NCBI GenBank assembly: GCA_934162555.1
Contig: CAKPJE010000001.1
Span: forward strand, 1 to 37,259
From: an uncultured Bacilli bacterium
GTDB lineage: Bacteria; Bacillota_I; Bacilli_A; RF39; UBA660
Reading direction: 5' to 3'
Length of the DNA: 37,259 nt
The position numbers were made by a program, and so were the translations under genes. Shown piece by piece: positions 1,167-26,960 of the stretch (position 1 is the stretch's first letter; the number at the start of each line of letters is the position of its first letter). The notes beneath the pieces are model-generated. The model made no database searches and had not been told where the DNA came from. It saw nothing but the letters and a program-made list of their open reading frames with translations.

Positions 1167-2453
1167 ATGAGTAAATTTATTAAATCAACTCTTATATTAT
1201 TAATAGGCGGATTTATTACCAAAATAATTGGTATGTTTATTAGAATTATTATGTCAAGAAAACTAGGACCTGAGGGTATGGGAATATATAGTCTAATGAT
1301 GCCAACATTTAGTTTACTCATAGCTCTATCACAATTTGGTTTTCCCATTTCAATTAGTAAATTAATAAGTGAGAAAAAAAGAAACAATTTTAAATTAATG
1401 GTATCTGTAATTCCAATTAGTATTATAATAAATTCAGTCTTAATTATATTTATGTTTATTTTTTCTAAACCTATTTCTATTTATTTGTTACATGAAAAAA
1501 GATGTTTTTTAGGTCTAATATGTATGGGATTAACCCTTCCATTTATTAGTACTTCTAGTATATTAAGGGGCTATTTTTTTGGTAAAGAAAAAATGATTCC
1601 TCATGTTCTTTCAAATATTATTGAAGATATTAGTAGAATGCTACTTTTATTTTATGGAATACCTTATTTTTTAAGTCAAGGATTTGATAAATGTATGGCA
1701 TTTATGATTCTAACAAATGTTGTAAGTGAATCAATATCAATTATTGTTTTATTAATATTTTTACCTAAAAAAATAGATTTAAGCAATGTATCATTAAAAG
1801 CTGATAAACATAATATTAAAGATTTAGTTAGAATTGGATCATCAAGTACAAGTTCAAGAATAATTGGTAATATCGGCTATTTTTTAGAACCAATTATTTT
1901 AACATCGCTTCTTTTATATTCGGGTTACAATAAAGATTATATTATTACTGAATACGGTATTATTAATGGTTTTGTTATGCCAATTGTTTTATTGCCTTCA
2001 TTTTTTACAAGTGCAATTAGTCATGCTCTACTTCCAAATATTAGTTATGCATATTCTAATGGTATGATAAAGGTAGTAAAAAAGAAATTAAAGCAATCAA
2101 TTTTAATTTCTTTATTAGTTGGTATTCCTTCAACAATTATTTTTATGATTTTTCCAGAAAAATTACTTTTGTTTATTTATAATACTGATAAAGGAATTAA
2201 ATATATTAGGTTTCTTGCCCTTCCATTTATTTTACACTACATCCAAGCACCTATATCTGCTTCACTTCAAGCAATGGGTAAAATGAAAGATTTACTTATT
2301 GGTACAATTCTAGGAATTGTTATAAAATTACTTACTTTAAGTATATTTTCATTAGTTCATATAAATTTATATGGTTTATTAATTAGTATAATATCATCTA
2401 TAACTTTTACAACTTTATATGATTATCATAATTTAAAAAAATATATAAAATAA
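1167..2453 (+). CDS. spoVB: SpoVB/MurJ-type (MOP superfamily) flippase, stage V sporulation protein B-like
   Basis: GGTGA lies 7 nt upstream of the ATG. The polytopic N-terminus MSKFIKSTLILLIGGFITKIIGMFIRIIMSRKLGPEGMGIYSLMMPTF...LSQFGFPISISKLISE closely parallels the SpoVB N-terminus. At 428 aa it is shorter than B. subtilis SpoVB. Confidence 0.7.
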   Translation: MSKFIKSTLILLIGGFITKIIGMFIRIIMSRKLGPEGMGIYSLMMPTFSLLIALSQFGFPISISKLISEKKRNNFKLMVSVIPISIIINSVLIIFMFIFSKPISIYLLHEKRCFLGLICMGLTLPFISTSSILRGYFFGKEKMIPHVLSNIIEDISRMLLLFYGIPYFLSQGFDKCMAFMILTNVVSESISIIVLLIFLPKKIDLSNVSLKADKHNIKDLVRIGSSSTSSRIIGNIGYFLEPIILTSLLLYSGYNKDYIITEYGIINGFVMPIVLLPSFFTSAISHALLPNISYAYSNGMIKVVKKKLKQSILISLLVGIPSTIIFMIFPEKLLLFIYNTDKGIKYIRFLALPFILHYIQAPISASLQAMGKMKDLLIGTILGIVIKLLTLSIFSLVHINLYGLLISIISSITFTTLYDYHNLKKYIK

Positions 2454-2460
2454 AGGTACA

Positions 2461-4053
2461 TTAAATTTGTGTACCTTTTATAATATTACTGTTACTTGAT
2501 TTGGTTGCAATCATATTATCTACAATACTAGAAGTACTAGAAGTATAATTAACTGTAACTTTAGCTCCATCCACTGTAGAGCAACCACTAAACATACTTG
2601 TATAACTAGAAATACTTGCATTTTTTATTGTTATTTCAGTTAAAAGATTAGAACAGTTATAAAACATACCGGTCATATTAGTAGCGCTACTAGTATCAAA
2701 TATTCCTAAATTTAAGTTTTTTAATTTTGTACAACCATTAAAGGTAGAATACATATTAGTTACTTTAGATGTATCAAAACTACTTAAGTCTAAATTTACT
2801 AAAGATGAACAGTTTAGAAACATAAAACGCATATAGGTTAAACTCGAAGTATTGAATTTTTTTAAATTTAAATCTACTAAAGATGCACAACCAGAGAATG
2901 TCCCAAACATTAGTGTTACTTTCGATGTATTAAAGCTACTTAAGTCTAATTTTTTTAAAGATGTACAGTCTGCGAATAAGTGGGTCATATCTGTTATTTT
3001 AGATGTATTAAAATTAGTTATATCAAGACTTTCAATAGCATTTAAATTCATAAACATTTCTTTCATATTTTCTACGTTTAATGTATTAAAACTACTTAAA
3101 TTTAAATTGGTTAAAGATGTACAACCATAAAACATTTGAGCCATTGTTGTAACGTTTTGCGTACTAAAATTACTTAAATCTAAATTTGTTAAAGATGTAC
3201 AATTAGTAAACATATTTTCCATATTGTATACTTTAGTGGTATTAAAGTTATTATTAAAATCAATCGTTTTTAAATTAGTAAAATCTCTAAATATACCGTA
3301 ACAATTATCGGGAGCATATATTTCATAACTACTTGCTATATATAAATTATATAAAGTTTTGCCATTACTATCTTTTAATCCACTGTCCACTAAATAAGAG
3401 TATACTTTTTTAGTTCCATTTCCAGTTATATCGAAACATAAATTAGTTTCATCACATGTACTTGGTACATTACTTAAATCATTTACAAATTTAATACTTC
3501 TTATGTATGGTTTATAAGTATCACTCCAAAATTCAGTTCCACTATTTCCATTTTTCATATAGGCAGCATTAGTAGTTCTACTTTTAATTATAATTTTAGC
3601 ATTTATTTCTTTATTGATAAAATTGTTATCTTCATTATCACTTATTTTACCATCCCAATACCAATATATAGTAACTGTATCACTTTTTGTATCGGTTGAA
3701 TTAAAGTATTTAGTATAGGTAGAAAATGGACTTATGTTATCATCTTGAGATAAAAATTTAAATCCTTTAGGTAAATTGGTTCTTTCAATACTTATACTAT
3801 AAATTGCATCACTTTCTGTATTGTCTAAATTAACTGTTAGATTAAAGTTTCCTTTATCGTATGGTTTTAAACTATCACCTAAATTTATTTCTTTAGTACT
3901 AGTAGAACCACTGCTAACGTTAAATGTATAATTAGCAGATGTAGCAACTATACTTCCATCTACTGCATATCTATAATAAGCAACTGTGCCTGTTGTAAAA
4001 AAGAGTAATCCTAGTGTAAGACTTAAAACAATTAAAAACTTTCTTATTCTCAT
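2461..4053 (-). CDS. Secreted BspA/DUF285-type leucine-rich-repeat protein with SipW-type signal peptide and TasA/camelysin-like N-terminal module (paralog 1, subfamily A)
   Basis: 530-aa ORF. The N-terminus ...LLFFTTGTVAYYRY resembles TasA/CalY-class signal peptides. It is followed by a beta-rich module (LKPYDKGNFNLTV...TNLPKGFKF...TIYWYWDG), then 8 x 25-aa repeats of type LTNLDLSxFNTSxVTxMxxMFxxCxS. There is no LPXTG, SLH or other anchor. Confidence 0.85.
   Translation of the reverse strand: MRIRKFLIVLSLTLGLLFFTTGTVAYYRYAVDGSIVATSANYTFNVSSGSTSTKEINLGDSLKPYDKGNFNLTVNLDNTESDAIYSISIERTNLPKGFKFLSQDDNISPFSTYTKYFNSTDTKSDTVTIYWYWDGKISDNEDNNFINKEINAKIIIKSRTTNAAYMKNGNSGTEFWSDTYKPYIRSIKFVNDLSNVPSTCDETNLCFDITGNGTKKVYSYLVDSGLKDSNGKTLYNLYIASSYEIYAPDNCYGIFRDFTNLKTIDFNNNFNTTKVYNMENMFTNCTSLTNLDLSNFSTQNVTTMAQMFYGCTSLTNLNLSSFNTLNVENMKEMFMNLNAIESLDITNFNTSKITDMTHLFADCTSLKKLDLSSFNTSKVTLMFGTFSGCASLVDLNLKKFNTSSLTYMRFMFLNCSSLVNLDLSSFDTSKVTNMYSTFNGCTKLKNLNLGIFDTSSATNMTGMFYNCSNLLTEITIKNASISSYTSMFSGCSTVDGAKVTVNYTSSTSSIVDNMIATKSSNSNIIKGTQI
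2645..3264 (-). repeat. 75-bp-period coding repeat array (8 LRR units) inside paralog 1 (approximate bounds)
   Basis: Repeated ttaaa(a/g)ctacttaa(g/a)tctaaa... / acaaccat(a/t)aaacat blocks every 75 nt, translating to the 25-aa LRR unit. Confidence 0.7.
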
Positions 4054-4139
4054 ATCTATTCCTTTACTTTCATTATAATGATACCATAAATGGTCTTAAA
4101 AAACAATATAGTTTTATCAAAAAAGATAGTTAAACTACC

Positions 4140-5768
4140 TTATGATATTAAACTACCTTTTACAACATTACTATTAGATGATTTTGTTGCAATCATACTA
4201 TCCACTAAAGAACTTGTAGCTGATGTATAATTAACTGTTATTTTGACTCCTGAAGCAGTTGCAGCACCTTGAAACATATACATATAATAAGTAGTATTAG
4301 CACTCATTATATTGATTGTTGTTGTAAGTTTCGAACAAGAATAAAACATCCAACCCATATATGTTACATTTGATGTATTAAAACTACTCAAATCTAGCCT
4401 TGTTAAAGATGAACAGTTTCGAAACATACCATCCATACCTGTTACATTCGAGGTATTAAAACTACTTAAATCAAGGGTTGTCAAGGATGAACAATTAGTA
4501 AACATACCACCCATTTCTGTTACCTTTGAAGTGTTAAAATTACTTAAGTCTAAACTTGTTAAAGATGTACAACCAGCAAACGCACCACCCATTTCTGTTA
4601 CATTTGAAGTGTTAAAATTACTTAAGTCTAAACTTGTTAAAGATGTACAACCATAAAACATATTAACCACCTCTGTTACTTTTGATGTGTTAAAATTACT
4701 TAAATCTAAACTTGTTAATGATGAACATTCATAAAACATATAATTCATACTTGTTACTTTTGAGGTATTAAAAACATTGGAGTCCAAACTTGTTAAGGAT
4801 GAACACTTAAAAAACATGCTACTCATATCTATTATTTTTGAAGTATTAAAGCCACTTAAATCTAAACTTGTTAAGAATGAACAGCCAGCAAACATATTTT
4901 TCATATTAGTTACATTTGAAGTATTAAAGTTATCATTAAAATTAATTTGAATTAAATTTGAAAGATATTTGTTATTTTCATATTTAGAAAAATAAAATAT
5001 GCTACCACAATTAGCTGGCGCAATTATTTCAACTTCACTAGCAATATACAAATTATATAAAACCTTTGTATTATCTGTACTATCTTTTAAACCACTATCC
5101 ACTAAATAAGCATACACTTTCTTAGTTCCACTTTCAGTTACATCCCAACATAAATTAGCTTCATCACAAGTACTCGGTACATTACTTATATTTTTAACAA
5201 AACTAACAGTTCTTATATAAGTTCTATAAGTATCACTCCAAAATTCACTTTTAGCACTATACCCATTCTTCATATAGGCCCCATTCATTTGTTTACTATC
5301 TATAACAATATCAGCACTCAAACTCTTCCCAACAAAACTAGTATCATTCTCATCATCAACATTACCATCCCAATACCAATATACAGTTACTGTATCGCTC
5401 TTAGTATCAGTTGATTTAAAAGTTTTACTATAAGTAGAAAAAGGACTTATATTATCATCCTGAGCAAGAAATTTAAAACCCTTAGGTAAATTAGTTCTCT
5501 CAATCTTAACAGAAAAATATGCATCACTATCAGTATTATTTAAATTAACCGTTAAATTAAAACTCCCCTTATCAAAAGGTTTTAAATTAGAACCCAAATT
5601 TATCTCTTTGGTAGTAGTAGAACCACTACTAACATTAAAAGTATAATTACCTACACTAGCTTTTATTAATCCACTAACCCCATACCTATAATAAGCAACC
5701 GTACCAGTAGTTATAACAGAAACAAAAAATACAATCGCCGAAAATATTAATATTTTTTTCTTATTCAT
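4140..5768 (-). CDS. Secreted BspA/DUF285-type LRR protein with SipW-type signal and TasA-like N-module (paralog 2, subfamily A)
   Basis: 542 aa, MNKKKILIFSAIVFFVSVITTGTVAYYRY..., with 8 LRR units. The N-terminal ~240 codons are nearly identical at DNA level to paralog 3. It has its own small hairpin plus T-run and a TATAAT-like box in the 87-bp spacer upstream. Confidence 0.85.
   Translation of the reverse strand: MNKKKILIFSAIVFFVSVITTGTVAYYRYGVSGLIKASVGNYTFNVSSGSTTTKEINLGSNLKPFDKGSFNLTVNLNNTDSDAYFSVKIERTNLPKGFKFLAQDDNISPFSTYSKTFKSTDTKSDTVTVYWYWDGNVDDENDTSFVGKSLSADIVIDSKQMNGAYMKNGYSAKSEFWSDTYRTYIRTVSFVKNISNVPSTCDEANLCWDVTESGTKKVYAYLVDSGLKDSTDNTKVLYNLYIASEVEIIAPANCGSIFYFSKYENNKYLSNLIQINFNDNFNTSNVTNMKNMFAGCSFLTSLDLSGFNTSKIIDMSSMFFKCSSLTSLDSNVFNTSKVTSMNYMFYECSSLTSLDLSNFNTSKVTEVVNMFYGCTSLTSLDLSNFNTSNVTEMGGAFAGCTSLTSLDLSNFNTSKVTEMGGMFTNCSSLTTLDLSSFNTSNVTGMDGMFRNCSSLTRLDLSSFNTSNVTYMGWMFYSCSKLTTTINIMSANTTYYMYMFQGAATASGVKITVNYTSATSSLVDSMIATKSSNSNVVKGSLIS
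4329..4946 (-). repeat. 75-bp-period coding repeat array (8 LRR units) inside paralog 2 (approximate bounds)
   Basis: Units translate to LTSLDLSNFNTSKVTEMGGMFxxCSS. Neighbouring units are near-identical in places (e.g. 4540-4690). Confidence 0.7.
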
Positions 5769-5855
5769 ACGTATCTTCCTTTACTATCATAATAATGATA
5801 TCATAAATGACCTTAAAAAACAATACGGTTTAGCAAAAAAGATAGTTAAACTACC

Positions 5856-7538
5856 TTATGATATTAAACTACCTTTTACAACATTACTACTAGATGATTT
5901 GGTTGCAATCATACTATCAACTAAAGAACTTGTAGCTGATGTATAATTAACAGTTATTTTTGCTCCCGAATCAGTTGCAGCATTAAAAAACATATATGAA
6001 TAACTAGTTGTGCCAGTATTTATTATACCGATTGTTGCAGTAAGTTTAAAACATTTACAAAACATGGATTGCATATTTGTTGCTTGTGATGTGTTAAAGC
6101 TACTCAAATCCAAACTGGTTAATGACGAACAGCCATAAAACATATAACCCATGTCTGATACCTTTATTGTATTAAATGTACCTAATTTTAAAATTGCCAA
6201 GGAGGAACAATTCTGAAACATAGCATGTATATCAGTTACACTGGCAGTATTGAAACTACTTAAATCTAAACTTGTTAAAGACGAACATTTATTAAACATA
6301 TAAGCCATATTCGTCACATTTAATGTGTTAAAATTGTTCAATTCTAAATTTGTCAATGATGAACATTTTTGAAACATACCAGTCATATCTGTTACATTTA
6401 ATGTATTAAAACCATTTAAATCTAAACTGGTTAAAATATTGCATGTAACAAACATACCTTGCATATTTGTCACGTTTGATGTATTAAAACCACCTAAATC
6501 TAAACTTGTTAAAGATGAGCATTCAGCAAACATCATGTTCATATCAGTCACATTTAAAGTATTAAAATTACTTAAATCCAAGCTTATCAAAGATGAGCAA
6601 GTACAAAACATATATGCAGAATTTGTTACATTAGATGTATTGAAGTTACTTAAATCTAAACTTGTTAATGATAAGCATTCATAAAACATCCCTCTCATAT
6701 TCGTGGTATTAAATGTATAAAACATATTATTGAAATTAATTTTTATTAAATTAGTAAAATTTCGGAACATAAACTCACAAATAATTGGCGCAAATATTTC
6801 AACCTCACTAGCAATATATAAATTATATAAAGCCTTTGTATTATCTGTACTATCTTTTAAACCACTATCCACTAAATAAGCATACACTTTCTTAGTTTCA
6901 CTTTCAGTTACATCCCAGCACAAATTAGTTTCATCACAAGTACTCGGTACATTACTTATATTTTTAACAAAACTAACAGTTCTTATATAAGTTCTATAAG
7001 TATCACTCCAAAATTCACTTTTAGCACTATACCCATTCTTCATATAGGCCCCATTCATTTGTTTACTATCTATAACAATATCAGCACTCAAACTCTTCCC
7101 AACAAAACTAGTATCATTCTCATCATCAACATTACCATCCCAATACCAATATACAGTTACTGTATCGCTCTTAGTATCAGTTGATTTAAAAGTTTTACTA
7201 TAAGTAGAAAAAGGACTTATATTATCATCCTGAGCAAGAAATTTAAAACCCTTAGGTAAATTAGTTCTCTCAATCTTAACAGAAAAATATGCATCACTAT
7301 CAGTATTATTTAAATTAACCGTTAAATTAAAACTCCCCTTATCAAAAGGTTTTAAATTAGAACCCAAATTTATCTCTTTGGTAGTAGTAGAACCACTACT
7401 AACATTAAAAGTATAATTACCTACACTAGCTTTTATTAATCCACTAACCCCATACCTATAATAAGCAACCGTACCAGTAGTTATAACAGAAACAAAAAAT
7501 ACAATCGCCGAAAATATTAATATTTTTTTATTATTCAT
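5856..7538 (-). CDS. Secreted BspA/DUF285-type LRR protein with SipW-type signal and TasA-like N-module (paralog 3, subfamily A)
   Basis: 560 aa with 9 LRR units. The N-terminal and C-terminal ends match paralog 2, while the central repeats differ. Confidence 0.85.
   Translation of the reverse strand: MNNKKILIFSAIVFFVSVITTGTVAYYRYGVSGLIKASVGNYTFNVSSGSTTTKEINLGSNLKPFDKGSFNLTVNLNNTDSDAYFSVKIERTNLPKGFKFLAQDDNISPFSTYSKTFKSTDTKSDTVTVYWYWDGNVDDENDTSFVGKSLSADIVIDSKQMNGAYMKNGYSAKSEFWSDTYRTYIRTVSFVKNISNVPSTCDETNLCWDVTESETKKVYAYLVDSGLKDSTDNTKALYNLYIASEVEIFAPIICEFMFRNFTNLIKINFNNMFYTFNTTNMRGMFYECLSLTSLDLSNFNTSNVTNSAYMFCTCSSLISLDLSNFNTLNVTDMNMMFAECSSLTSLDLGGFNTSNVTNMQGMFVTCNILTSLDLNGFNTLNVTDMTGMFQKCSSLTNLELNNFNTLNVTNMAYMFNKCSSLTSLDLSSFNTASVTDIHAMFQNCSSLAILKLGTFNTIKVSDMGYMFYGCSSLTSLDLSSFNTSQATNMQSMFCKCFKLTATIGIINTGTTSYSYMFFNAATDSGAKITVNYTSATSSLVDSMIATKSSSSNVVKGSLIS
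6045..6740 (-). repeat. 75-bp-period coding repeat array (9 LRR units) inside paralog 3 (approximate bounds)
   Basis: Same 25-aa unit, but the variable positions differ from paralog 2. Confidence 0.7.
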
Positions 7539-7623
7539 ACGTATCTTCCTTTACTTTCTATTCAATGATACCATATTTTCATCTTTTATTCAATCGCAAT
7601 TACAAAAAATAGGATAATAAAAA

Positions 7624-10014
7624 TTATCCTACTACAATATTAACTAATTTTTTAGGTATAACTATTACCTTAATAATTTCCTTACCCTGAATATTAGCAT
7701 TTACATTTGGTATACCTAAAGCAATATCAACCATTTCTTCCCCAGAAGTATTAGAAGAAATCTCAATCTTACCCCTTACCTTACCATTTACCTGAACAAC
7801 CATCTCATAACTATCATCCTTTATCTTACTCTCATCATAAGTTGGCCATTTTTCATAAGCAATAGTATTACTCTCTCCTAACATACTCCATAATTCTTCA
7901 GTAACATGAGGAATAATAGGATTTATTAATTTCAAGAAATTCTTAGCATACTCTAAAGGAAATACATTTTCTTTATATACAGCATTTATAAATATCATCA
8001 TCTGGGAAATAGCAGTATTTATATTTAAACTCTCATAATCCTCTGTTACCTTCTTAACAGTTTGATTATATACCTTATCTAAATTAGTATTTTTTTCATC
8101 TTTTATTTTATTTTCAGTTGTATATAACCTATAAATTCTTTCAATAAACTTTCTAGATGCCTCAATTCCCTTAGCATCCCATGGTTTAGAAGCCTCAATC
8201 GGTCCCATAAACATCTCATATAACCTTAAACTATCAGCACCATATATTCTAACCATATCATCTGGATTTACAACATTACCCCTTGATTTAGACATTTTTT
8301 CATTATTCTCACCCAAAATCATACCTTGATGTATTAGTCTTTTAAAAGGTTCATCATTAGTTATATAACCCTCATTATATAGAAAACGATTCCAAAACCT
8401 TGAATATAATAAATGACCAACAGCATGTTCAGCACCACCCATATATAAATCAACTGGCATCCAGTGATCAGCTAAAGTTTTATCAACAAATTCTTTATCA
8501 TTATCAGGATCAATATATCTTAAATAATACCAACTAGATCCAGCAGATCCGGGCATTGTACAAGTTTCTCTTACACCTTTAACACCATCTATTACAACAT
8601 TTTTCCAATCCTCAGCGTTATCAAGTGGTGGATTACCATTTTTACCCTTATAATCATCCATAACAGGTAAAACTAAAGGAAGTTCACTATCATCCAAAAC
8701 ATATTCTTTACCATTTTCTAAATGAACTATCGGTACAGGTTCACCCCAATATCTTTGGCGCGCAAATATCCAGTCCCTTAAACGATAATTTATTTTTTTA
8801 GTTCCAATATTATTTTCTTCAATAAATTCAAACATTTTATTTAAAGCATCTTCTTTATTTAAACCATTTAGAAATTCAGAATTAATATGTAAACCATCTC
8901 CAGTAAAAGCCTCTTCTAAAACATTTCCACCCTCTAAAACTGGTATTATTTCTAGATTAAATTTTTTGGCAAATGCATAGTCTCTTTCATCATGAGCTGG
9001 TACTGCCATAATTGCGCCTGTTCCGTATGATACTAATACATAATCACTAATCCATATTGGTAATTCTTTACCATTTACTGGATTTATTGCATAAGCACCT
9101 GTAAATACTCCTGTTTTATCTTTATTTAAATCTGTTCTTTCTAATTCAGACTTTAATGAGCACATATTTTTATAATTTGTTACTTCTTCTTTTTTATCTT
9201 CTGTTACTATTTTATCAATTAATTCATGTTCTGGTGATAATACACAATATGTTGCACCAAATAAAGTATCACACCTTGTTGTAAATACTGTAAAATCATA
9301 ATCAGTATCTTTTACTTTAAATTTTATTTCAGCTCCAACAGATTTACCAATCCAGTTTCTTTGCATTTCTTTAGTTGATTCTGGCCAGTTTAATTCATTT
9401 AAACCATCTAATAGTATTTCTGCATATTTTGGCATTTTCATTACCCATTGTCTCATATTTTTACGAACAACTGGATAACCACCTCTTTCAGATTTACCAT
9501 CAATTATTTCATCATTAGCAAGTACTGTACCTAATTCTTCACACCAATTTACTGGCATATATGTACATTCTGCTAAACCCTTTAAATACATTTGTTTAAA
9601 TATCCATTGCGTCCATTTATAAAATGATGGATCACTTGTTGATATAGCACGATCCCAATCATATGAAAAACCTAGTTCTTTCATTTGTCTTGTAAAGTTT
9701 GCTATATTTTTTTCAGTAAATCCTCCTGGATGATTACCTGTTTTTATAGCATATTGTTCAGCTGGTAAGCCAAATGAATCAAACCCCATTGGATGAAGGA
9801 CATTAAACCCTTGCATTCTTTTCATACGCGCTACTATATCAGTTGCTGTATAGCCTTCTGGATGACCAACATGTAAACCTTCTCCAGATGGATATGGGAA
9901 CATATCTAAACAATAATATTTTGGTTTTGAAAAATCATAAATATCTGTTTTGAAAGTTTTGTTTTTGTCCCAATATTCTTGCCATTTTTTTTCAATTTTC
10001 TCATGATTATACAT
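7624..10014 (-). CDS. leuS: Leucyl-tRNA synthetase
   Basis: 796 aa. Class I HIGH motif ([16 protein letters not shown]) and KMSKS (EKMSKSRGN). N-terminus [21 protein letters not shown] is typical of LeuS. Preceded by GGAGG and a T-box leader. Confidence 0.97.
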
Positions 10015-10226
10015 AATTTCCTCCTAAAAAAACACTATAAATATAAGGACGATCATTACCGCGGTACCACCTTATTTCATAATGTTATGCTTCTTTATAA
10101 TTTTTAACGCGATTAAGCGATTCAATCTAGAAAATAAGTTCATAAGTAATATTTATTAATTTCCATCAACCATTAACTTTCTATAAAATATTATTTTATT
10201 ACTACTTTTTCCGTCTTTTTGAATAT
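10015..10226 (-). promoter_or_regulatory. T-box riboswitch leader (Leu specifier) controlling leuS
   Basis: On the minus strand the conserved T-box sequence AAGGTGGTACCGCGG lies at ~10060-10073, followed by CGTCCTTATATTT...GTGTTTTTTT and the GGAGG RBS. An AGAAAG / GGTTGATGGAA stem-I-like region lies upstream. Two CUU (Leu) triplets, each followed by A, sit at 10146-10144 and 10138-10136 next to GA/GAA and are candidate specifiers. Confidence 0.85.
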
Positions 10227-10232
10227 ATACAT

Positions 10233-10261
10233 ATATTAGCATATTTTTTTTAGATAAGCAA
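10233..10261 (-). promoter_or_regulatory. Sigma-A-type promoter for the leuS T-box leader
   Basis: Minus strand reads TTGCTT, 17 nt, TAATAT. Confidence 0.6.
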
Positions 10262-10569
10262 GTATTTAAGAAAAAGTTTTAGATATATAAGGAAATGTAT
10301 AGTACTTTTTTAAGTTCATTCTTATCTTATTTTGTAAAGGATTATAAGAGTCTTATACAAGTCTTAAAAATAAAAATCATTTCGCAAAAGTCAATTTTTT
10401 TCATTTTTGCGAAATGGTTTAAAAAAAAACAATTCTAAAGTGCAAATTTTGCACTTTGAAACTCACCATTTGCACTTTGCCATTCCCATTATTTAAGCAT
10501 TAACATCAAATAAATCCATAAATCAGAATTAATTATATTATTCAAACATATAATTAACTAGGTGAAAAA

Positions 10570-16213: not shown

Positions 16214-18008
16214 ACATTGCTTTTAAAGTTATTTTAGTTTGATTAGCTGTTGATGCGGTTGCTTTCATAGCTTCAGCTATTGTTTGTGTATCTGTAGTAT
16301 AACCAAGTATAACATATGCAGCAGGATCTGTCAAAGCAGAAGTAAACATCTTGGAATAGTCAGTTCCAGTATTCATTATATTTATCTCTGTTTGGAGTTT
16401 TTCACAACTACGAAACATATCACTCATATCTGTAACCTTAGACGTATTAAAACTACTTAAGTCTAAACTTGTTAATGAAGAACAACCAGAAAACATACCA
16501 CTCATCTTTGTTACTTGTGATGTATTAAAATTACTTAAATCTAAGTTAGTCAAGAATGAACAGCCATAAAACATATTCCACATACTTGTTACATTCGAAG
16601 TATTAAAACTGCTTAAGTCCAAACTTGTTAATGATGAACAACCCAAAAACATTTGACCCATAGATGTTACTTTTGATGTATTAAAACTGCTTAAATTCAA
16701 ACTTGTTAATGATGAACAATTTTCAAACATACCACCCATCTTTGTTACATTCGATGTATTAAAACCGCTTAAATTTAAACTTGTTAATGATGAACTTTTA
16801 CAAAACATATAGCTCATGTCTATTACTTTTGATGTATTAAAATTACTTAAATCTAATTTTGCTAAGGATGAACAATCCATAAACATTTGAGACATTCTGG
16901 TTACTTTAGATGTATTAAAACTACTTAAGTCTAAACTTGTTAAGGATGAACAATTCACAAACATCTGTGAAAAATTAGTTACTTTTGATGTATTAAAATT
17001 ACTTAAATCTAAGTTAGTCAAGGATGAACAGCCATAAAACATATACCCCATATCTGTTACATTCAATGTATTAAAATTACTTAAATTTAATGTTATCAAT
17101 GATGAACAATTTTCAAACATACAATACATATCTGCTACATTTGAGGTATTAAAATTATTATTAAAATTAATTTGAGTTAAATTTTTAAAATTACTAAACA
17201 TATCATTACAATTAGATACCGCAAATATTGGTGCTTCACTTACCACATATAAGTTATATAATGTCTTTTCTACTGTTGTACTTGTACTACTATCCGTTTC
17301 AGATACTGTTAATCCACTATCTATTAGATAACCATATACCTTTTTCTTTTGACCTGCCCAATATGATATATCCCAACATAAATTTTCTTCTGTACAACTA
17401 CTAGGTAAATTACTCAAATCATTACCAAATGTTATTGTTCTTATATATGGTTTATATGTATTATTCCAAAATGCTTTTGAATACCTAGACCCATTCGTCA
17501 TTATTGCATATTCACTTATCTGAACCGCACTTACCCTAACATTTGCTTCTAAATTACTTACATTTATAAACTTACTATCCTCTATATCATCTATATATGG
17601 ATTCCAATACCAATATATAGTTAATGTTTCTGTTTGATTTGTTGTTTCTAAGAAACTATAGTACTTGTGTAATTCACTCTTATGATCTGATGTTGCATAA
17701 AACTTTAAATTAGTTGGTAAATTTGTCCTTTCTATCTCTAAAGTTGCATACATATCTACACTTGATCCACTAGCATCCATGGTAACAGTAAACTCTCCAC
17801 TATCTCCAGGATTTATTTTACCTAAATCTATTACCTTATTATTCCATACACTATTATCACTATCTCTTAATACAAATACGGCATTACCAGTACTACCTTT
17901 TATACTTCCATTTACAACTATTCTATAATAAGCAATTGATCCAACTAATAAAGCTATCAAACCCATTATAGATAAAATCACTAAAATTATTTTTTTACTA
18001 TTCTTCAT
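16212..18008 (-). CDS. Secreted BspA/DUF285-type LRR protein with SipW-type signal and TasA-like N-module (paralog 4, subfamily B)
   Basis: 598 aa. MKNSKKIILVILSIMGLIALLVGSIAYYRIVVNGS..., KINPGDSGEFTVTMDASGSSVDMY...TNLPTNLKFY...LTIYWYWNPY, then 10 LRR units. The C-terminal end ...ILGYTTDTQTIAEAMKATASTANQTKITLKAM is shared with paralog 5. Confidence 0.85.
   Translation of the reverse strand: MKNSKKIILVILSIMGLIALLVGSIAYYRIVVNGSIKGSTGNAVFVLRDSDNSVWNNKVIDLGKINPGDSGEFTVTMDASGSSVDMYATLEIERTNLPTNLKFYATSDHKSELHKYYSFLETTNQTETLTIYWYWNPYIDDIEDSKFINVSNLEANVRVSAVQISEYAIMTNGSRYSKAFWNNTYKPYIRTITFGNDLSNLPSSCTEENLCWDISYWAGQKKKVYGYLIDSGLTVSETDSSTSTTVEKTLYNLYVVSEAPIFAVSNCNDMFSNFKNLTQINFNNNFNTSNVADMYCMFENCSSLITLNLSNFNTLNVTDMGYMFYGCSSLTNLDLSNFNTSKVTNFSQMFVNCSSLTSLDLSSFNTSKVTRMSQMFMDCSSLAKLDLSNFNTSKVIDMSYMFCKSSSLTSLNLSGFNTSNVTKMGGMFENCSSLTSLNLSSFNTSKVTSMGQMFLGCSSLTSLDLSSFNTSNVTSMWNMFYGCSFLTNLDLSNFNTSQVTKMSGMFSGCSSLTSLDLSSFNTSKVTDMSDMFRSCEKLQTEINIMNTGTDYSKMFTSALTDPAAYVILGYTTDTQTIAEAMKATASTANQTKITLKAM
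16398..17171 (-). repeat. 75-bp-period coding repeat array (10 LRR units) inside paralog 4 (approximate bounds)
   Basis: Units translate to LTSLDLSSFNTSKVTxMxxMFxxCSS. Confidence 0.7.
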
Positions 18009-26441: not shown

Positions 26442-26960
26442 TTATCTATTTGGTATTTGATTACCACTAGCAGTAATATTTAATATAATACCTTGGTTTA
26501 TAAAATTTATATCATCAGTACTTTCACCAAAATAAGGCCATACCCAATGTATTGTATAAGATTTTGTCATACTGGTTGCATCACAATTTAAAATACCACT
26601 CAAAGTATAATTTTTTAAATCAACATTTGTATCATCTAAATAAAATTCCATATTAGTAGGAACATTTGTTCCTGTAAAAACAACATTATAACCAACATCA
26701 ACATCACTACCAGTTGCAACAACATCAAAAGTAAAATTACCTTTATCACCAGGATTAATTTTACCAGCAACTGCTTGATCTGTTACTGTGTCATTTAAAT
26801 CAATACTAGTCAAAGTAGAACCTTTATATTTAATATCAAAAGCAAATTTTCCTGCATTAAATATAACCATACCTTCTATATCTTTACTATAATAAGCATA
26901 TGTACCAATATAGATAAATACTAAACCCAATAAAAAGAATAAACTTGATATTTTTTTCAT
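26442..26960 (-). CDS. Stand-alone TasA/camelysin-like secreted protein with SipW-type signal peptide
   Basis: 172 aa. MKKISSLFFLLGLVFIYIGTYAYYSKD (G-T-x-A-Y-Y, as in the TasA/CalY class). KINPGDKGNFTFDVVATGSDVDVGY...TNVPTNMEFY...TIHWVWPY aligns block for block with the first ~165 aa of the five LRR paralogs. Confidence 0.8.
   Translation of the reverse strand: MKKISSLFFLLGLVFIYIGTYAYYSKDIEGMVIFNAGKFAFDIKYKGSTLTSIDLNDTVTDQAVAGKINPGDKGNFTFDVVATGSDVDVGYNVVFTGTNVPTNMEFYLDDTNVDLKNYTLSGILNCDATSMTKSYTIHWVWPYFGESTDDINFINQGIILNITASGNQIPNR

Follow-up and report, generated by a model that had tools for sequence, protein, structure and literature searches.

How can neighbouring genes share ends that are almost identical while the repeat arrays between these ends are old and diverged? 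The question is raised by three tandem genes for leucine-rich repeat (LRR) proteins, here termed g1, g2 and g3, which lie in a 37,259-nt stretch of DNA from an uncultured Bacilli bacterium of the human gut (GenBank assembly GCA_934162555.1, contig CAKPJE010000001.1, positions 1 to 37,259; the whole stretch is referred to as the window). All three genes are on the minus strand between leuS and a murJ-like gene, and their open reading frames (ORFs) are 530, 542 and 560 amino acids (aa) long, respectively. Our analysis suggests that the trio, a small tandem family of PARCEL (DUF285/BspA-type) proteins that are presumably secreted or exposed at the surface, has probably been diversified by recombination among paralogs and alleles. 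Directly observed are the mosaic structure of the genes, the discordant synonymous divergence of their parts, and the polymorphism between samples in gene copy number, unit number and chimeric genes. The genes, their arrays (anchors and Tandem Repeats Finder, TRF) and the blocks of identity shared by g2 and g3 are located as follows.

5856–7538, minus strand: g3, the leuS-proximal paralog, 560 aa (ORF; DUF285, E = 8e-50; TIGR02167, E = 1e-68; FNT anchors), consisting in order of a signal/anchor helix, an N-terminal beta-rich module, an LRR N-cap, nine FNT-anchored units, and a C-cap with tail.
4140–5768, minus strand: g2, the middle paralog, 542 aa, with the architecture of g3 and eight units (ORF; DUF285, E = 3e-58; TIGR02167, E = 2e-83).
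2461–4053, minus strand: g1, the murJ-proximal paralog, 530 aa, eight units (ORF; DUF285, E = 2e-62).
6021–6713, minus strand: repeat array of g3, eight in-register 78-bp units plus an irregular first unit (TRF, period 78 at 6052–6723; anchors).
4305–4928, minus strand: repeat array of g2, eight units of 78 bp (TRF, period 78, 7.5 copies at 4343–4928; anchors every 26 aa).
2623–3246, minus strand: repeat array of g1, eight units (anchors; TRF detects 3052–3246 only).
5035–5785, minus strand: 5' identity block (hereafter N-block), g2 copy, starting 17 nt before the ATG and reaching about codon 245, comprising the whole N-terminal module.
6805–7555, minus strand: 5' identity block, g3 copy, offset by 1770 from the g2 copy.
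4118–4266, minus strand: 3' identity block, g2 copy, with the end of the C-cap, the tail ...VVKGSLIS, the stop codon and the hairpin.
5834–5982, minus strand: 3' identity block, g3 copy, offset by 1716 from the g2 copy, with 8 mismatches in 149 positions (94.6% identity).

The two N-blocks differ at 7 of 751 positions (99.1% identity) and match exactly over 600 bp (5160–5759), which an exact-match scan showed to be the longest exact repeat in the whole 1.08-Mb, 138-contig metagenome-assembled genome (MAG) of the host. The block takes in the ribosome-binding site and excludes the promoter of g3, and the mismatch at 5760 is the sole change near the start, turning MNKKK into MNNKK. Between the 5' and 3' blocks identity drops to 28–78% per 50 columns, and the arrays of g2 and g3 are only 64–83% alike. 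Chance can be excluded as the source of the N-block identity, because 600 identical bases occur here in a pair of genes that is about 70% identical in its arrays. The third paralog takes no part in this likeness, since in this strain g1 has diverged from the other two over its full length (57–88% identity to g2 per 60-nt window).

These observations bear out most of what a first-pass annotation, made from the sequence alone, had described: three co-oriented genes with spacers of about 86 bp (86 and 87 bp), near-identical 5' blocks with a single change next to the start codon, similar 3' blocks, eight units in one array against nine in the other (8 FNT anchors in g2, 9 in g3), and a first paralog that differs along its entire length. 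In two respects the description has to be revised. The unit is not 75 bp or 25 aa long; both TRF and the anchors give a period of 78 bp and 26 aa. Nor are the arrays of g2 and g3 made of reshuffled cassettes, as an 8 x 8 comparison of their units is without a diagonal and the best pair, in any register, agrees at only 65 of 78 positions (83%). In the window the two arrays are old, diverged sets of units, not reshuffled copies of each other, and the gain, loss and sharing of units become visible only on comparison with other strains.

The age difference between ends and centres is most clearly seen in the synonymous divergence (dS). Between g2 and g3, dS is 0.028 in the N-blocks and 0.79 in the scaffold codons of the arrays, about 28-fold lower in the N-block, and the N-blocks of g2 and g1 differ by a dS of 0.91. 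As a yardstick we used a sister species of the same genus, represented by a Hadza MAG whose LeuRS protein has 91% identity to that of the window: dS between it and the window is 0.56 for leuS, 0.81 for murJ and 0.47 for the orthologous N-block. Array dS thus resembles that between sister species, which argues that the arrays are as old as the species split and that the ends are, by dS, about 28-fold younger. At the leuS–murJ site the sister species has two genes whose N-blocks are about 79% identical over their full extent, and there is no mosaic. Simple duplication long ago, followed by uniform divergence, was the outcome which the first-pass annotation had named as speaking against its own reading; the discordance between N-block and arrays rejects it. 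Purifying selection alone is likewise rejected as the source of the identical block, since synonymous sites are identical as well, and a diversity-generating retroelement was set aside, given that the differences between the arrays include synonymous scaffold sites and entire units.

Protein searches pointed to the same division of the gene in other genomes, where relatives were found whose first 245 residues are 94–100% identical to those of g2 and whose arrays and lengths (430–664 aa) diverge. When residues 1–245 served as the query, an N-block with at least 94% identity was present on 8 distinct clusters (defined at 90% identity), the next matches having 87% and then 78% identity. Eight loci (L030–L037) from independent human-gut metagenome assemblies, some of them from other Hadza samples, could then be compared with the window. 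All loci, including that of the window, come from short-read metagenome assemblies. Identity to the window is 97.8–98.7% for leuS, 97.4–99.6% for murJ and 95.0–99.7% for the downstream gene, and the loci consequently represent conspecific strains. Between leuS and murJ they hold two or three genes, depending on the strain, with the following protein lengths (? marks a gene cut by the contig end).

Window: 560-542-530 aa.
L030: 560-540-530 aa.
L031: 566-540-530 aa.
L032: ?-540-530 aa.
L033: 542-530 aa, two genes.
L034: 560-620-539 aa.
L035: 664-542-530 aa.
L036: ?-558-533 aa.
L037: 430-430-539 aa.

To follow the arrays, 210 in-register 78-bp units were clustered at 95% identity or more into 71 unit types, and each array was written as a string of these types. 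The comparison of copy and unit number between strains, which the first-pass annotation had proposed, thereby yields two to three genes, arrays of 4 to 12 in-register units and one in-register deletion of five units across the eight loci. The g3 array of the window reads 00–07; the array of L035.0 begins with 00 01 02 03 and continues with eight different units, and that of L036.0 begins with 00–04 and continues with six different units. Units 55 and 58 are neighbours in L036.0 and stand two units apart in L035.0, and unit 43 is the penultimate unit of three otherwise dissimilar arrays. The deletion is found in L037.0, the string of which (24 25 26 32) equals the array of L030.0 without units 27–31. 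Other orthologous arrays are stable, being 93–100% identical between some strains (g2 of the window and L035.1; g1 across six strains).

Several genes of these strains are chimeric. L030.1 (protein P0017) combines an N-block and a tail of the g2/g3 type with a variant of the g1-type array, and its N-block is 100% identical to that of its neighbour over about 540 nt; the protein is encoded by four contigs, of which three demonstrably derive from different samples. L034.2 and L037.2 carry its array variant between ends of the g1 type, and L034.2 is also counted as a chimera. L036.2 (P0025) has g1-type sequence at both ends and, inside, a tract of about 480 nt with 100% identity to the N-block of the neighbouring gene, over which the g1 ortholog reaches just 62–88%. 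L037.0 and L037.1 are identical over the entire 1.29-kb gene (1358–2650 and 2738–4030), both with the array that lacks five units, which reflects either a very recent whole-gene duplication or an assembler that looped twice.

The N-blocks also evolve in concert. Over their nucleotides 1–510 in six strains, the two g2/g3-type paralogs of one strain show 0–1 differences, whereas positional counterparts from different strains show 4–12, and likeness within strains that exceeds likeness between strains is a signature of concerted evolution. In addition, a patch of 18 inserted nucleotides is present in L031.0 and absent from L030.0, although the middle genes of both strains carry it. The same pattern is found in a second tandem pair of the host genome, on contig C2, with exact blocks at 3068–3491 and 5214–5637 (424 bp) and at 3819–3951 and 5986–6118 (133 bp). 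Overall, the chimeras, the duplicate and the variable gene and unit numbers of different strains, together with the dS contrast between N-block and arrays, support the proposal of the first-pass annotation that duplication, together with gene conversion or unequal crossover, varies the surface encoded here.

The proteins themselves belong to a known group. All three match DUF285 (PF03382) with 168–209 bits (cut-off 25) and TIGR02167, 'PARCEL repeat-containing surface protein', with 190–273 bits (cut-off 30) and 7–8 repeats per protein, and homologs close to the trio are named 'BspA family leucine-rich repeat surface protein' in their sources. The consensus of the unit is FNTSNVTNMxxMFxxCSSLTSLDLSS. 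Its scaffold residues F1, T3, M9, F13, C16 and L19 are nearly invariant (entropy below 1 bit), while entropy reaches 3.4–3.8 bits at positions 10, 11 and 14 and 2.7 bits at position 15. At these four positions omega, the ratio of nonsynonymous divergence (dN) to dS, is about 1–4 or dN is saturated, compared with 0.17–0.35 at the other positions. This pattern fits unconstrained or diversifying evolution of four exposed positions on what may be a ligand-facing surface.

The trio is also part of a large family, since g2 has matches in 33 ORFs of the MAG (E < 1e-60 for about 25), and at roughly 1.7 kb each they would make up an estimated 4% of the MAG. Members lie on contigs C2, C3, C6, C10, C15, C18, C24, C35, C62–64, C88, C94, C97, C106 and others, as well as elsewhere in the window (16365–18002 and 35321–37093). 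Many contig ends fall within family members, and the family thus fragments the assembly. All five other genomes of the genus contain 27–58 matches, compared with only 2 of 13 genomes from the rest of the taxonomic family that contain any, with few in each; the expansion is genus-specific.

How could recombination produce this pattern? The frames around the arrays, that is the 0.75-kb N-block on one side and the tail plus spacer on the other, would be long enough to serve as substrates for RecA-type homologous recombination with neighbouring paralogs and with alleles. Gene conversion would hold the frames of g2 and g3 near-identical, and its tracts would end where identity drops to about 70%, leaving the arrays as old, separate lineages. 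Unequal crossover within the frames could gain or drop whole genes, as in the loci with two rather than three copies and in the perfect duplicate, and unequal crossover among the 78-bp units could alter their number. Strains would consequently vary in the number, the length and the binding surface of these proteins. Recombination as the mechanism, surface exposure and ligand binding are what we infer from the observed pattern.

A number of points weigh against this reading. The evidence comes throughout from short-read assemblies, and the MAG of the window has contig ends that overlap by 77 bp (k = 77). Bubble popping during assembly may erase isolated single-nucleotide polymorphisms, so the exactness of the 600-bp match and the 0–1 differences within strains are upper bounds on similarity. 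Some of the mosaics come from a single contig of low coverage (L036, coverage 5.6). At the hypervariable positions dN is saturated and each comparison comprises 28–44 codons (32 for pairs between genes), and positive selection is not demonstrated. Finally, a search of the 69.5%-complete genome beyond the locus, for stretches of 100 bp or more with 90% identity or higher, uncovered no donor of a foreign array, tail-only matches aside, and conversion of the ends therefore cannot be told apart from replacement of the array.

This last point leads to an alternative which we consider unlikely, namely that a recent tandem duplication was followed by the exchange of one copy's array for a foreign one, from another strain or another family member, by homologous recombination with the N-block and the tail as homology arms, in which case the youth of the ends, and not conversion, would account for their identity. 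Only two genes occupy this site in the sister species, which makes the g2/g3 pair species-specific, and the perfect whole-gene duplicate in L037 indicates that fresh duplications happen. Array types are moreover combined freely over positions and strains between near-identical flanks, and eight different arrays occur on one N-block. However, N-block variants are common to the two paralogs of a strain and differ between strains, so that a single old duplication would need ongoing homogenisation in any case. The patchy tracts (the 18-nt patch in L031.0 but not in L030.0 and the 480-bp tract in L036.2) suggest conversion, and the lack of a donor array in this genome, incomplete as it is, also speaks against a swap.

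We give very little credence to the idea that collapse or mis-joining of short reads in a de Bruijn assembly produced the identical ends, the copy numbers and the chimeras. It is true that family members break the assembly, many contigs ending within them and contig ends overlapping by 77 bp, and that g2 and g3 differ only in chains joined to unique flanks, as bubble popping would leave them. Against this, the region contains no Ns, and the junction of tail, spacer and N-block is unique and demands two tandem N-blocks, which forces the topology. The order of g3-type, g2-type and g1-type arrays was assembled independently in L035, P0017 is identical on its four contigs from at least three samples, and N-blocks of the g1 and g2 types are about 75% identical, so shared 77-mers cannot make chimeras between them. 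In L030, assembly also preserved an internal 18-nt indel patch in which its two paralogs are unlike. Similarly, it is most improbable that the locus is a system of programmed, high-frequency antigenic variation, in which cassettes are switched within a clonal population (as in vlsE, pilE/pilS or mycoplasma MgPa) in place of slow recombination at the level of strains. Conserved frames around variable cassettes, the very large family and the run of seven A in codons 4–6 of g2 and g3 would be in line with such a system, but each of the three genes is complete and has an ATG, a ribosome-binding site and a promoter-like site of its own, and there is no silent cassette; the arrays of other strains have no copy elsewhere in this genome, and the orthologous arrays that are stable between strains do not point to rapid switching. 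Diversification of a tandem surface-protein family by recombination among paralogs and alleles hence remains the reading that we favour.

The elements of the two spacers and of the region 5' of g3 are given below.

5769–5855, minus strand: g3–g2 spacer, 87 bp, with the hairpin GGTAGTTTAACTATC at 5855–5841 and T6 at 5840–5835 (fold −11.8 kcal/mol, z = −1.7), a promoter-like site of TTGTTT (5823–5818), 17 nt and TGaTATCAT (5803–5795), and the ribosome-binding site AAGGAAG.
4054–4139, minus strand: g2–g1 spacer, 86 bp, with the hairpin GGTAGTTTAACTATC at 4139–4125 and T6 at 4124–4119 (fold −14.4 kcal/mol, z = −2.9), and a promoter-like site of TTGTTT (4106–4101), 17 nt and TGgTATCAT (4086–4078) with an overlapping TATAAT box (4077–4072).
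7539–7623, minus strand: region 5' of g3, with the leuS terminator hairpin and T-run, followed by TTGAAT-17-TGgTATCAT (7593–7565); fold z = −2.6.

The two internal spacers are identical at 75 of 88 positions (85%), and the hairpin, T-run and TATAAT-like box (TATAAT/TATTAT) that the first-pass annotation had seen in each are present, although the hairpins are weak, with modest fold z-scores (−1.7 and −2.9). The region 5' of g3 is unlike these spacers until about 27 nt ahead of the ATG. A promoter scan matched TTGAAT-17-TGgTATCAT, including its TG, before g3 and reported TTAAGA-16-TATAAT in the g2–g1 spacer. A scan for consensus terminators found no site, because the hairpins carry too few G-C pairs for its rule. 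On the basis of these sequence elements, each gene appears to form a unit of its own, with promoter-like site, ribosome-binding site, ORF, and weak hairpin with T-run. The leuS gene lies upstream of the trio (7624–10014, minus strand), and the murJ/Polysacc_synt-like gene (1167–2453, plus strand) is convergent with it.

At their N-termini the three proteins have a Lys-rich start, a hydrophobic helix and the motif TGTVAYYRY; these are followed by a beta-rich module of about 140 aa, a conserved region of about 90 aa, the 8–9 units at strict 26-aa spacing, and a C-cap with a short tail. The N-termini contain no Cys lipobox and the short C-terminal tails no recognisable anchor. For g2, an AlphaFold2 model (mean predicted local distance difference test score, pLDDT, 87; predicted TM-score, pTM, 0.84) places the hydrophobic helix at residues 2–22. 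A stand-alone protein of 172 aa encoded elsewhere in the window (26442–26960, minus strand) is 25% identical to the N-module of the LRR proteins and keeps its invariant G..YY, PxDxGxF and W.W. The A7 runs in g2 and g3 (5753–5759 and 7523–7529; nt 10–16 of the genes) make slipped-strand frameshifting conceivable in principle, and such runs are common at 25% GC, the approximate base composition of the host MAG. Antisense ORFs (…KLLKSKLVKD…) cross the arrays at 2852–3130 (plus strand, 92 aa) and 6439–6684 (plus strand, 81 aa). They arise as a by-product of a repeat that is regular and AT-rich, and the consensus unit translated antisense has stops in all three frames. Antisense ORFs are likewise mentioned for PARCEL repeats in the paper that describes them (PMC2996958).

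Next to leuS there is a second strain-variable site beside the locus. L030, L031 and L033 carry an insert of about 1.65 kb, with Fic/HTH and GNAT acetyltransferase genes, between the gene for a 119-aa membrane protein and leuS, and L033 has additional AAA_14/DUF4143 and Peptidase_S51 genes at the same spot. The window is without the insert (10015–10569; compare L030, 1696–3343), and its genome contains no copy of it.

The locus provides a calibrated natural example of surface diversification in an uncultured gut bacterium with a tiny genome, and its fixed leuS–murJ site could be used as a marker for strain typing. The 26-aa unit would also supply a defined set of hypervariable, putatively ligand-facing positions. 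It also cautions that genes of just this kind are fragmented, and may be collapsed, in short-read MAGs.

How does the trio compare with systems already described? One likeness is to TasA/CalY (camelysin), as the signal region ends in GT[VF]AYY, recalling the cleavage region of those proteins, and the N-module is beta-rich. The host genome has two genes for a SipW-like, archaeal-type signal peptidase I (TIGR02228, cut-off 51.85): one on contig C46 (4364–4834, 68.1 bits), which also holds a fragment of the LRR family at its end (9–329), and one on contig C37 (2315–2761, 65.6 bits), which has an in-frame TAA. Unlike in TasA/CalY, these genes are not beside the trio. A Pfam search with the N-module alone gave no camelysin-family match and nothing meaningful, a profile search of PDB sequences did not find TasA and likewise gave nothing meaningful, and Foldseek with the full g2 model found nothing in the PDB at E < 1e-3, listing TasA (5of2) at rank 31 (E = 0.18, probability 0.89, TM-score 0.34 on the target). 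It is therefore doubtful that the N-module is a TasA-like, SipW-processed fibre subunit and that homogenisation of the N-block keeps paralogs with different arrays co-polymerising into a mixed fibre. If this were true, recombination, both here and between some 25 paralogs, would give each strain a differently tuned version of a sortase-free, combinatorial adhesive fibre.

With the BspA-like LRR adhesins (Tannerella BspA, Treponema LrrA and Trichomonas BspA) the trio shares a solenoid of short LRRs, expanded families and a presumed role in adhesion. In contrast to the 23-aa LRR of BspA, its repeat is of the DUF285 type, 26 aa long, with one Cys and N-x-S/T sequons, and adhesion is presumed by analogy. 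Unlike vlsE or pilE/pilS, the locus has three full-length genes instead of a single expression site with promoterless silent cassettes. Listeria internalins, Neisseria opa genes and the mycoplasma Vlp/Vsa proteins are characterised by conserved ends, divergent or length-variable centres, mosaic alleles and changes in repeat number by unequal crossover. By analogy, the trio would resemble them in its conserved ends and variable centre, its mosaic alleles and its changes in repeat number. It differs in that the homogenised part is the whole 245-aa N-terminal module together with the regulatory spacer, and in that the trio occupies a fixed housekeeping site, leuS–murJ, which is conserved across species of the genus.

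The closest resemblance is to PARCELs themselves, which the original report defines as amphipathic repeats, variable in number and carried by membrane-targeted proteins, that horizontal transfer and intragenomic shuffling have spread, the coding DNA having the dyad symmetry to which PARCELs owe their name; LppQ and LppC, lipoproteins of the Mycoplasma mycoides cluster, are among its examples (Roske et al., 2010; PMC2996958). By that description, the trio has in common with PARCELs its tandem amphipathic repeats of 25–26 residues, with conserved hydrophobic and variable hydrophilic positions and variable repeat number, a membrane-targeting N-terminus, and an organisation in multigene families whose members are shuffled within the genome and vary among close relatives. 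In a crude test of dyad symmetry, which differs from the MEME palindromes of the paper, the 78-bp consensus matched its reverse complement at 42/78 positions at best, a value not above shuffled controls (40.5 ± 2.5). In contrast to PARCELs, no mobile element adjoins the trio. Unlike the mycoplasma lipoproteins, the trio is without a lipobox, carries a hydrophobic helix, TGTVAYYRY and the beta-rich module of about 140 aa, and belongs to a gut Bacilli host, whose MAG bears sporulation genes and is not that of a mollicute. Recombination between the conserved ends of repeat-protein paralogs is a well-known mechanism, and the leuS–murJ locus is a new example in a known protein family.

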